A stretch of DNA of 48,953 bases from a virus (lineage: Duplodnaviria; Heunggongvirae; Uroviricota; Caudoviricetes). This document shows, piece after piece, positions 40,857-43,287 of this stretch. The DNA lies in IMG/VR virus record IMGVR_UViG_2579778802_000015, one strand, 5' to 3'. A program made the translations under genes and the position numbers. Within the stretch, counting starts at the first letter, position 1. Each line of letters opens with the position of its first letter. The notes below the pieces were generated by a model. It saw only the letters and a program-made list of their open reading frames with translations. It was not told the DNA's origin and did no database searches.

Positions 40857-41570
40857 ATGACCACGCCTTCAGTTTTGCCGCAAAAGTTATGGCGTCCGCT
40901 TGCAGAGATTAAAAACTTCGTTGAAAAAATGCCTGATGGAGTTCGCCTTACGGAAGTTACTAAAAAAGTTAAGACATTTGCCGAACTGTCAGGAAAGGAG
41001 AGAAACCAGCTCATAGATTTTATCGATAAACGGGAAAGCATCATTGTATTTAAGGTCAGAAAAGAAGGTTCTGGTAACGGAGTAACCTTTTTCCGCCACA
41101 AAAAATATGGATATCCCAAACGGGAAGGAAACGTCACAATCATTAAGGACCTTCAATCAAAATTATGTACCAGATGCGGGCAGACAAAATCAGTCAATGA
41201 TTTTTATTCAGATGCCAGCAAGCGTGACGGGAGAGCCATTTATTGCAAGAAGTGCGAATCTGCAATGAAACGCTCACGCAGAGAATGCAACAAATTAATT
41301 CTGCAACAACAGGAACCTGAAATGAATAACCTCAAAGCAGTTTCACCTTCACCAGAAATACTCAGAAAACAGGCTGAAGAATTGCTGAAAGCCGCCGAAA
41401 TTGCGGAGAAAAAACGCCAGGAAGATGATGCATTCAACAAAAAACTTGCGCCCTTAAAACTTGAAATTCTTCAGGCCGCCGGAAAAATGCAGCTTAAACT
41501 GGACGAATTCATCGACTGTATGGATGAAATGAATAAAGCAGTTCAGAAGCTTAAAGAGCTGACCGCCTGA
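40857..41570 (+). CDS. Hypothetical protein with zinc ribbon and C-terminal coiled coil (237 aa)
   Basis: CTRCGQ...CKKCE motif; first early-left gene after N; the track lists a TTG-initiated version from 40854. Confidence 0.6.
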   Translation: MTTPSVLPQKLWRPLAEIKNFVEKMPDGVRLTEVTKKVKTFAELSGKERNQLIDFIDKRESIIVFKVRKEGSGNGVTFFRHKKYGYPKREGNVTIIKDLQSKLCTRCGQTKSVNDFYSDASKRDGRAIYCKKCESAMKRSRRECNKLILQQQEPEMNNLKAVSPSPEILRKQAEELLKAAEIAEKKRQEDDAFNKKLAPLKLEILQAAGKMQLKLDEFIDCMDEMNKAVQKLKELTA

Positions 41571-41601
41571 TATTAATAAATTGCAACTACCGGAGTTAAC
41601 T

Positions 41602-41961
41602 ATGAACGAAACAGAACTGAAGCACATTATCGCCCTGCTTCTGGAAGATGCCAGACAGGTTTATCGACTTAGCCCAAATTCCGCAACGCTGACACGCATC
41701 CAGATGGCAGAAAAAGCACTGAAACAGGATAATGAAAACAGCGCATCCGAAGTTGATGCTAATGGTGAAAATGAAGTAATAGAAATAAACAGCAATATCA
41801 GCGACAGTTGCATCGCTTACAGCCACCAAATAATTCGTGTAAGTGCAAGAATAATGGAAGTGATGGCAAGTGAGCTTGAAAAGAACAACATCAAGCCCAC
41901 TGATTGTTGTTTAAGAACCGTAATGAACGTTATTTATTACTCGATGTTCCGAAGCCGCTAA
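41602..41961 (+). CDS. Hypothetical protein (119 aa)
   Basis: MNETELKHIIALLLEDARQVYRLSP...; SD GGAG. Confidence 0.55.
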   Translation: MNETELKHIIALLLEDARQVYRLSPNSATLTRIQMAEKALKQDNENSASEVDANGENEVIEINSNISDSCIAYSHQIIRVSARIMEVMASELEKNNIKPTDCCLRTVMNVIYYSMFRSR

Positions 41962-42139
41962 CAGCGTCGAGTTTTTCATTAAAAAATGATTCAAATGCAT
42001 CGTAAAATACGGCAATAGCACCGCCCTTATCTACCGCAGCAGGAACTGCCTTTTGAGGTATATCTTTCTCCCTGAATTGTGTGTTGTAGGTATCGACAGC
42101 CAGCCGCATCAGAAACATCACTTTTTCTTCTTGTGTCAT
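41930..42139 (-). CDS. Hypothetical 69-aa protein, antisense to the pL operon
   Basis: MTQEEKVMFLMRLAVDTYNTQF...; strong SD AAGGAGAG; 3' end overlaps the upstream plus-strand gene by 32 bp. Confidence 0.5.
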   Translation of the reverse strand: MTQEEKVMFLMRLAVDTYNTQFREKDIPQKAVPAAVDKGGAIAVFYDAFESFFNEKLDAVSGFGTSSNK

Positions 42140-42380
42140 AAATTCACTCTCCTTACGGGGTTTGTAGTTGAGGAGTTCTCCACGGGTGAGGTGGAGATCG
42201 TGCGCCGGACACGGGTAAGTTCCGGCACTCTCAGTTTACTGAACAGACATTACCCTGAAAGCCAGGGTACAACACGAAAGTGCACGGCGAAGACTCTTTC
42301 CCATTGAAGGCTTGTCGTTAGATTTCTTCGACCGTGCGCTTCCGGTTGTGAATAACAACATTGCTGTGTGTAGCCCTTGG

Positions 42381-42420
42381 CGGACATCGGTTTGCCGATT
42401 GCTGATGTCCGCCCTTTTTA
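42381..42420 (+). terminator. Plus-strand intrinsic terminator inside a 440-bp non-coding gap
   Basis: GGCGGACATC...GATGTCCGCC hairpin followed by CTTTTTAAAG. Confidence 0.6.
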
Positions 42421-42595
42421 AAGTGAATTTTGTGATGCGGTGAATGCGGCTATGCGCACGCGGAACAGTTAAACCGACAGGATGTCACGGAAAGTCATCG
42501 TCCCCTGACCCGGCGTTAGTTGTTAACTGGTTAACGTCACCTGGAGGCACCAGGCACCGCATCAACAAAGTTCATTTGTGAAAATGGAGATAATT

Positions 42596-42817
42596 ATGAT
42601 TGCTCATCACTTCGGAACTGATGAAATACCACGTCAGTGCGTGACGCCTGGCGATTATGTTCTTCATGAAGGTCGGACATATATCGCTTCAGCAAACAAT
42701 ATTGAAAAGAGAAAACTCTATATTCGTAACTTCACAACAAAAACATGCATTACCGACTGCATGATTAAAGTTTTCATCGGGCGCGATGGCTTACCCGTAA
42801 AAGCAGCGTCGTTGTGA
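42596..42817 (+). CDS. Hypothetical protein (73 aa)
   Basis: [32 protein letters not shown]...; SD GGAGA. Confidence 0.5.
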
Positions 42818-42900
42818 CGAGTAATAAAATACACCTTCCATATCTGTAACAGACAAGCCGAAATAAAACCGCATTAATTATCAATCACGGAAAAATCAAA

Positions 42901-43287
42901 ATGAAAGAACTTGCGCAAAATGAAATATTTTCCGAAACCAGTCCTGATGCAATAAATGAACTCGAAGAAATTGCAGAACGCATCAGTAAAATATGCAAAG
43001 AATACAAAATCGACTTTGTATTTTCTTTTTCAGTGCTTACAGAAGTTGGAAATAACGAATATAAGGACAGTCGTTTTGTTTTATGTGGGTTAAATGGCAA
43101 AACACCAAGCCCATATATTCATGCTGCATGTGAAGTCGTCAGAAGCAACATTGGAGCACAACAAATCCATACACTTGCACAGGCTCTTGAGTTTGCAAGA
43201 GAAAATTCTGAGTGCGACTGCCCTGAATGCCAGCACGAAAAGGGAAAAACAACTCACAAAACAGCAAACCAGGCAACCTTCCACTGA
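42901..43287 (+). CDS. Hypothetical protein (128 aa) with C-terminal Cys cluster
   Basis: ...ENSECDCPECQHEKGK...; AT-rich. Confidence 0.5.
   Translation: MKELAQNEIFSETSPDAINELEEIAERISKICKEYKIDFVFSFSVLTEVGNNEYKDSRFVLCGLNGKTPSPYIHAACEVVRSNIGAQQIHTLAQALEFARENSECDCPECQHEKGKTTHKTANQATFH

Follow-up and report, generated by a model that had tools for sequence, protein, structure and literature searches.

Results

The subject of this work is the early-left segment (positions 40,857 to 43,287) of a 48,953-nucleotide (nt) stretch of DNA from a lambdoid phage, IMG/VR record IMGVR_UViG_2579778802_000015 (Caudoviricetes). Coordinates are such that the early-left (pL) operon is the plus strand, and "the window" means this stretch at its full length. 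We propose that the segment is a Rac-type early-left module, with a KilS-type small RNA (sRNA) and the division inhibitor KilR, in a lambdoid phage that uses N antitermination; the probability of this reading is in our estimate roughly 75%. It is based on homology, on covarying RNA structures, on the identity of KilR and on the gene order. The main outcome is a correction: what seemed to be unknown genes and an unknown gap is largely a KilS-KilR division-inhibition module in an apparently complete N-dependent phage, and the early-left region is mostly explained by known biology. What is new is modest: a KilS allele in the slot of DicF, a divergent and pseudoknotted leader of STnc100 type for both kilR and dicB, and a slot for variable cargo genes. 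The segment contains five open reading frames (ORFs) and one RNA cassette.

40857..41570, plus strand: ORF-A, 237 amino acids (aa), starting 3 nt past the N stop codon
41602..41961, plus strand: ORF-B, 119 aa
41930..42139, minus strand: ORF-C, 69 aa, in the sieB position
42140-42595: non-coding RNA cassette of about 455 nt, between ORF-C and kilR
42596..42817, plus strand: kilR, 73 aa, with the Shine-Dalgarno sequence GGAG at 42586-42589
42901..43287, plus strand: ORF-E, 128 aa, in the ydaE position

The killer gene of the segment is kilR

The original prediction, made from the sequence alone, placed the segment in the pL operon between N and gam-bet-exo, and the gene order bears this out. It also described four unknown and unrelated small ORFs and saw no kil function. 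Four plus-strand ORFs are indeed present; however, the one of 73 aa at 42596-42817 is KilR, and it lies in the kil position. It matches the NCBIfam model NF008465, "FtsZ inhibitor protein", with 154.9 bits (cut-off 92) over residues 1-72 of 73, it is 90% identical to Rac KilR, and it belongs to phrog_294, while its homologues carry the Pfam domain PF27398 KilR. We thus take the gene to be kilR and its product to be a predicted inhibitor of FtsZ and cell division. Further, each of the five ORFs can be placed in a known PHROG family (E-values between 8e-36 and 7e-131), and all are therefore conserved phage genes.

A role in host takeover and anti-defence had been expected for the region. The takeover part stands, as KilR lies here, but no evidence for anti-defence was found: PADLOC gave no match for ORF-A, ORF-B, ORF-C or ORF-E. 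The sole hint is the zinc ribbon of ORF-A, which shows a similarity at the PHROG level to Lar-like restriction-alleviation proteins.

The gap before kilR is a shared untranslated region

Upstream of kilR an ORF-free, structured gap of about 440 bp had been noted. With its actual length of about 455 bp it contains no conserved ORF (42140-42595), and its fold beats that of shuffled sequences (z = -5.34). The gap is not anonymous, however. Its counterparts, homologous along its length, are the sieB-kilR spacer in Rac and the ydfC-dicB untranslated region in Qin. Positions 42334-42600 match DNA upstream of kilR at 81-86% identity, and an alignment over the length of the gap is obtained with the untranslated region between ydfC and dicB in Qin-like prophages and in phage Tritos, where DicF is annotated. 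Of 5426 complete E. coli genomes, 4616 match some part of a 461-nt gap query and 82 contain the gap as a whole. An Rfam scan of the gap at E <= 1 returned DicF and STnc100, both below threshold, and no riboswitch or other family. The region is also moderately AT-rich, as had been stated (42.4% GC against 52.2% in the whole window), but the gap alone has 50.2% GC.

The RNA features of the gap, all on the plus strand, are the following.

42269-42293 paired with 42325-42349: long imperfect helix of 23 bp (the upstream helix), in the minimum-free-energy fold
~42328..42419: KilS-type sRNA allele, from the alignment with MG1655 kilS (b4833)
42359-42373: KilS-type single-stranded seed CAUUGCUGUGUGUAG
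42379-42413: KilS-type terminator hairpin (13-bp stem, 42379-42391 with 42401-42413), followed by U5 at 42415-42419
42421..42578: kilR leader, predicted divergent member of the STnc100/PasD superfamily
42423-42433 with 42565-42575: outer helix of the leader
42434-42442 with 42555-42563: leader P1
42446-42450 with 42456-42461: leader P2
42514-42519 with 42531-42536: leader P4
42540-42544 with 42550-42554: leader P5
CAGUUAA at 42466-42472 with UUAACUG at 42523-42529: leader pseudoknot

The upstream helix is conserved. Among five alleles 90.4% of the cells are paired, compared with 30-49% in slid controls, and five pairs have changed on both sides. The KilS homologue begins within the 3' strand of this helix. 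For DicF of Qin, a 190-nt precursor with a 5' end generated by RNase III and a 53-nt form generated by RNase E have been reported (10.1101/2023.04.14.536235). Counting back 190 nt, we infer that the Qin RNase III cut would also fall in the 3' strand of the upstream helix.

A KilS-type small RNA occupies the slot of DicF

The strong plus-strand terminator noted earlier is a real hairpin followed by U5, of the intrinsic-terminator type, with a folding energy of -30.3 kcal/mol (z = -4.59 against shuffles). Judged by alignment it is the 3' end of a putative KilS-type sRNA allele. In MG1655, kilS (b4833, 98 nt) lies at 1418405..1418502 on the complement, at the homologous hairpin, and kilR starts at 1418229. 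The distance to the killer gene is kept: in the window the U-run at the 3' end of KilS stops at 42419 and the kilR ATG follows 177 nt later, at 42596, and in Rac the distance is 176-177 nt. The 5' body, including CAUUGCUGUGUGUAG, is common to the window and Rac, while the hairpin loop is not conserved. The seed is identical in four non-DicF alleles: those of Rac, the window, L036 and L055 (L numbers are our own labels).

In K-12, KilS was discovered by RIL-seq on Hfq as a 98-nt RNA from the 5' untranslated region of kilR and was confirmed by northern blot; its reported partner is yncL (PMC8175672). The predicted duplex between the seed and the yncL leader (-37..-16) has -17.6 kcal/mol for the window (p 0.023 against shuffles) and -18.9 kcal/mol for Rac KilS (p 0.012). 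The 5' part of DicF has no predicted pairing with the yncL leader.

Could the hairpin instead be a true DicF, repressing the translation of ftsZ, so that division would be blocked twice, by the RNA and by KilR? The slot of the RNA is that of DicF, and the surrounding untranslated regions are homologous; it has the stem base GGCGG...CCGCCC, the U-run and an AUC(A/G)GUUU stretch in common with DicF, and true DicF is combined with KilR in other phages, e.g. L007 and L091. By eye, GGUUU and CCGAUU of the hairpin could also pair with AAACU and AAUCGG, which flank the ftsZ Shine-Dalgarno sequence. However, Rfam DicF (RF00039) reaches only 29.5 bits at 42365-42414, where the gathering score is 48 and the true DicF RNAs of L003 and L004 reach 76.7 and 72.5 bits. 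The DicF 5' seed UUUCUGGUGACGUUU is replaced, as is the loop (ACUCC) through which DicF pairs with the ftsZ ribosome-binding site, and the nearest characterised relative is KilS, with yncL rather than ftsZ as the reported partner. RNAduplex of each sRNA allele against the ftsZ leader, at full length and in 18-nt windows, gave nothing significant; this test has no power, because validated DicF failed too (p 0.39). On the Rfam score and the replaced seed and loop we rejected an assignment of the sRNA as DicF, and we regard the double block of division as quite unlikely.

The KilS-type assignment fits into a wider pattern. Across 35 distinct loci the slot is occupied by true DicF, Rac KilS, the type in the window and at least three others. 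These alleles occur in combination with kilR, dicB or other genes, and the stem base, the U-run and the downstream leader are common to all of them. KilS and DicF are alternative alleles of one slot in a shared untranslated region, and at least six variants of hairpin and seed have been recombined with these genes. In the open-access literature we found no paper that links KilS to DicF.

The kilR leader is a divergent STnc100/PasD-type RNA

Between the U-run and kilR lies the second structured RNA. From its sequence and fold, the kilR leader is a predicted divergent member of the STnc100/PasD superfamily, with which it shares P1, P2, P4, P5 and invariant motifs. The structure was derived with RNAalifold from an alignment of 39 sequences. 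In the helices of the superfamily 95.1% of the cells are paired, compared with 36-45% when slid, 176 cells have changed on both sides, and the score exceeds that of every one of 500 shuffles. P2 of the copies found in front of kil-type genes (kil-type copies, GCGGC/GCGC) is the fully compensated form of the canonical CCCCC/GGGG.

In addition to these helices we found a pseudoknot, in which the strand on the 3' side of P2 pairs with the P4 loop. Six or more contiguous Watson-Crick pairs are present in 67% of the representatives, formed by 16 different sequence pairs, while the controls gave 3.4% (shuffled loops) and 13% (mismatched partners). Since P4 covaries as well, the pairing is a pseudoknot. 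The Rfam model has no pseudoknot, and a recent survey of the Pas and STnc100 RNAs does not mention one.

The kil-type subfamily has an added outer helix, which together with P1 gives about 20 bp and ends about 20 nt before the ribosome-binding site of kilR. In L055 the outer helix contains a compensatory GCGAA/UUCGC change. A 72-nt DicF species with a 3' end made by RNase III has been described (PMC5069750); by our count this end would fall inside the 5' strand of the outer helix. The closing helix of the kilR/dicB leader thus appears to coincide with a reported RNase III end of DicF.

The kil-type and canonical copies differ in what follows them. No terminator is found within 110 nt of any of the 35 kil-type copies, and in 34 of the 35 a Shine-Dalgarno sequence and an ORF, mostly KilR or DicB, follow at a fixed distance of 32 or 37 nt. 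Among 99 canonical STnc100 copies, in contrast, 46 have a terminator within 110 nt and four are followed by a Shine-Dalgarno sequence and an ORF.

A rival reading is that the STnc100-like element is a cis-acting aptamer, either riboswitch-like or protein-binding, which gates the translation of kilR or dicB, rather than a passive or trans-acting RNA. The conserved core with near-invariant junction nucleotides and a pseudoknot speaks for such a role, as does the observation that one core is connected to two outputs, a terminator (46/99 canonical) or a ribosome-binding site at fixed distance (34/35 kil-type). Further, the element precedes toxic genes that need tight control. However, it has no known ligand or partner, we identified no alternative pairing that would hide the Shine-Dalgarno sequence, and the long closing helix is equally consistent with processing by RNase III. 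The canonical relatives, moreover, act as Hfq-associated small RNAs with partners in trans (10.64898/2026.05.13.724894). The aptamer is in our opinion possible but unlikely. An extension of it, that the whole STnc100/PasD superfamily, with the kilR and dicB leaders among its members, is a cis-acting regulator and more than an Hfq small RNA, with a terminator output in the late copies and a ribosome-binding-site output in the early-left copies, is more doubtful still. If it were true, STnc100/PasD would be a widespread phage switch that gates toxic or moron genes, and the gap, with an sRNA slot (DicF, KilS and others) and a cargo slot, would be a modular regulatory hub of lambdoid prophages. 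The predicted identity of the leader as an STnc100/PasD member would in itself tie an Rfam family that has no function to the control of well-studied and genetically tractable toxic genes.

Elements of this type are often present in several copies within one phage. With TCACCNGGAGGCACCNGGCACC they were located in at least 120 viral contigs, some of which have two or three of them. Cores of STnc100 type lie within 0.25-4 kb of each other in L015 and L070 (three copies each) and in L021, L025, L040, L061, L081 and L087 (two copies each). The window has two tandem canonical STnc100 copies on the minus strand, at 27466-27674 (129.8 bits) and 27950-28141 (145.1 bits); together with the kilR leader the phage thus carries three members of the superfamily. 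The canonical copies lie between a Q antiterminator gene (29289-29774, minus strand) and a sialate O-acetylesterase-like gene (25261-27264, minus strand). The leader itself is not one of the known Pas sRNAs, an assignment that we rejected: PasB is found in a structural-gene operon, and PasA, PasC and PasD are located in the late region.

Parts of the kil-type leader are also seen in other places. They occur upstream of terB in the ban region of the P1-like phages P7 (L005, 2001-2116) and D6, and upstream of small ORFs that precede a lambda-type Kil in Klebsiella phages (L006, ST405-OXA48phi1.2, ~2501).

ORF-C marks a putative slot for opposite-strand genes

A 69-aa ORF on the opposite strand with a strong Shine-Dalgarno sequence had been pointed out as a convergent antisense gene. 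The ORF is present at 42139-41930, with the Shine-Dalgarno sequence TAAGGAGAG and an overlap of 32 nt with the 3' end of ORF-B. Its orientation is not unusual, as sieB of lambda and sieB of Rac likewise face against the pL operon. ORF-C belongs to phrog_2605 (E 2.8e-44), a family with only 15 clusters among 5.8 billion proteins, all of them enteric. Homologues at 57% and 47% identity retain an open frame of 63-68 codons. In every context that we examined the homologues lie on the strand opposite to the early-left operon and abut the gap before kilR or dicB, and wherever the neighbouring gene was called they overlap its 3' end. The AlphaFold2 model consists of two helices (pLDDT 63.8, pTM 0.31), and both its low confidence and its simplicity make it unsuitable for a fold search. 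ORF-C has a sieB-like placement, as an opposite-strand gene inside the early-left operon; we rejected it as SieB, since it matches phrog_2605 only and has no Pfam, NCBIfam or PADLOC match.

The start of the gene is more conserved than the rest.

42092..42200, minus strand: conserved junction, consisting of the 5' untranslated region, the Shine-Dalgarno sequence and the first 48 nt of ORF-C

At the homologous place in L129 and L132 the DNA of this junction is nearly invariant, including synonymous sites, where the remaining ORF is only 47-57% identical in protein. This pattern of substitution indicates that the constraint on the first 48 nt of ORF-C (42092-42139) is on something besides the protein. 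In other prophages unrelated ORFs of 73, 77 and 91 aa start at the same offset from the anchor GAGTTCTCCACGG, while in Qin of the K-12 type the cargo slot is empty. The alternative cargo proteins have no Pfam or PADLOC match. We read the site of ORF-C as a putative shared start site, or slot, for variable cargo genes on the opposite strand. By analogy with sieB these genes may be expressed in the lysogen, and small opposite-strand genes in the sieB position would then be candidates for exclusion or regulatory factors of the lysogen.

The same junction suggests a different view of the gap, namely that it is a mosaic recombination linker, or the promoter and 5' untranslated region of the cargo gene, and that it has no RNA function on the pL strand. 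The sharp mosaic boundary at about 42092 inside ORF-C, the differing cargo genes that begin at one junction, and the varied sRNA alleles joined to varied downstream genes would all be expected from a linker. However, the helices and the pseudoknot on the plus strand contain compensatory base changes, which indicates selection on RNA structure, and the KilS and DicF RNAs have been detected experimentally from homologous regions. Qin of the K-12 type retains the left half of the gap without any gene in its cargo slot, and the minus strand showed no promoter consensus in 42140-43500. We consider a mere linker very unlikely, and prefer to see the gap as an untranslated region of the KilS-KilR module that is functional as RNA.

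ORF-A, ORF-B and ORF-E

Sequence searches against the PDB gave nothing meaningful for these three proteins, and nothing was above threshold in Pfam and NCBIfam. The Cys-rich character noticed earlier is real: CxxC...CxxC is found in ORF-A and CxCxxC in ORF-E.

ORF-A belongs to phrog_2539 (E 7e-131), and the part with its zinc ribbon is similar to PHROGs of the Lar-like and endonuclease VII kinds (E 1e-9 to 2.5e-9). Its homologues form 67 clusters across Enterobacterales, in which the N-terminal domain and the C-terminal helix are conserved, while the zinc ribbon with CxxC...CxxC (residues ~105-143) is an optional insert. The AlphaFold2 model (pLDDT 77.8) shows a winged-helix-like domain at 9-81, a zinc-ribbon region and a helix of 70 residues. 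Foldseek with this model weakly matched winged-helix proteins (PadR, RTP, BlaI, Fur; best E ~0.04). The model thus suggests a protein with a winged helix, a zinc ribbon and a coiled coil.

ORF-B belongs to phrog_2982 (E 5e-77). Its 36 C-terminal aa are a module that recurs beside the ORF-C family, even where the rest of the neighbouring protein differs: this C-terminus is 53% identical to that of a different protein of 201 aa, which in Qin-like prophages is likewise convergent with a gene of the ORF-C family. ORF-E belongs to phrog_2016 (E 3e-77), with its CxCxxC motif in the C-terminal part. Despite the ydaE position it has no similarity to YdaE, and a relationship to YdaE was rejected.

Genomic setting

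The following features surround the module.

37908-38621: cI, upstream of pL
38668-39210 and 39198-39974, plus strand: two overlapping genes in the rexAB position between cI and pL
40193-40221: pL-like promoter, match TTGACA-17-GATACT
40470..40853, plus strand: N antiterminator gene, with DNA 98.9% identical to 933W N
43395..45467, plus strand: RecE-N-terminal-like gene, 690 aa, which bounds the module downstream; gam, bet and exo come next

The closest sequenced phage is PhiR5_2, with 98.9% identity over 40400-43400. For the two genes in the rexAB position there are matches to both components of PDC-M24, a candidate defence system in PADLOC (A: E 4e-4; B: E 5e-7), as well as to DUF6978 and DUF1828. 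The 690-aa protein matches NF007259 (RecE, exonuclease VIII) over model positions 1-598 of 877 with 740 bits, below the equivalog cut-off of 1269, and Pfam Exonuc_VIII with E 1e-12; as the match to the RecE model ends at 598 of 877, the C-terminal nuclease part is not covered. The gene sits directly upstream of a complete gam-bet-exo set.

Elsewhere in the window, at 31941-32128 on the minus strand, a C4 antisense RNA (74.4 bits) is found next to isrK (75.4 bits). Just downstream of this pair is an antirepressor-like gene with ORF6N and P22_AR_C domains (31185-31886). The arrangement looks like an antirepressor control region of the P1 immI type.

A model for the KilS-KilR module

A mechanism in agreement with these observations can be proposed. 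Without N, or from a weak internal promoter, transcription would stop at the KilS terminator, so that the sRNA would be the sole product and the toxic kilR would not be expressed. Once the phage is induced, N-modified RNA polymerase coming from pL would pass the KilS terminator. RNase III and RNase E would then cut the two long helices and release KilS, a structured leader RNA and a kilR mRNA with a short leader. KilR would block FtsZ and the division of the host during lytic growth, while KilS would act in trans through its conserved seed. The target of KilS is here taken from K-12 by analogy. The leader may be an element for processing and stability only, an RNA that acts in trans as its canonical relatives do, or a switch in cis. 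In Rac, kilR is silenced by NusG-dependent termination (PMC10798246), which fits the need for a tight control of kilR.

Several points weigh against this reading. The leader scores 31 bits on STnc100 (RF02076; 42416-42610, E 9e-4), below the gathering score of 47. Before KilS, Rac has an extended -10 located 7 nt from the 5' end, compared with a weaker TAGATT without TG in the window, which makes an independent KilS promoter doubtful. The hairpin loop in the window differs from that of Rac KilS, so targets that are contacted by the loop could differ. For ORF-C, a consensus scan of the minus strand (42140-43500) gave no sigma-70-like promoter, and by eye only 7-of-12 matches were seen. Four of the five proteins, all but KilR, have no assigned function. 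Finally, read-through by N and cleavage by the RNases would proceed as in lambda and Qin, from which they are extrapolated.

Comparison with known systems

In lambda the order of the pL genes is N-sieB-ral-ea10-cIII-kil-gam-bet-exo. An N-dependent early-left operon, an opposite-strand gene just past N (sieB in lambda) and a small killer gene directed at FtsZ upstream of gam are common to lambda and the window. However, no ral, cIII, ea10 or lambda-type kil was recognised in the window, and its killer is KilR behind an RNA cassette of about 455 nt, which lambda does not have. The placement of ORF-C is like that of lambda sieB, which is at 34482..35036 on the plus strand with N on the complement. 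In Rac, sieB is opposite to kilR, and ORF-C is alike in both placement and orientation.

The resemblance to Rac (ydaG-ydaF / sieB / kilS-kilR-ydaE, E. coli K-12) includes KilR, the KilS-type sRNA, the leader, an opposite-strand gene that abuts the gap, and a RecE-like gene downstream. The window differs in that the operon is headed by an N antiterminator and gam-bet-exo is present, in the KilS hairpin loop and the weaker -10 before KilS, and in having a 69-aa protein in place of SieB and ORF-E in place of YdaE.

The dicBF operon of Qin (ydfABC-dicF-dicB-ydfD) shares with the window an untranslated region that is homologous at full length, including the helix that contains the putative RNase III cut and the leader that precedes the division inhibitor. 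Both have a terminator-ended sRNA in the same slot and a toxic division inhibitor downstream. In contrast to Qin, about 130 nt including the DicF seed are absent from the window, and the inhibitor is KilR and not DicB.

Finally, the kilR leader and STnc100/PasD have P1, P2, P4, P5, the motifs GGUGAAU and UCACCNGGAGGCACCNGGCACC and the pseudoknot between a loop and a strand in common. Compared with canonical STnc100, the leader has different P2 and pseudoknot sequences and a long outer helix, and it lacks its own terminator; it leads straight to the ribosome-binding site of kilR, and it is located in the early-left operon rather than in the late region.

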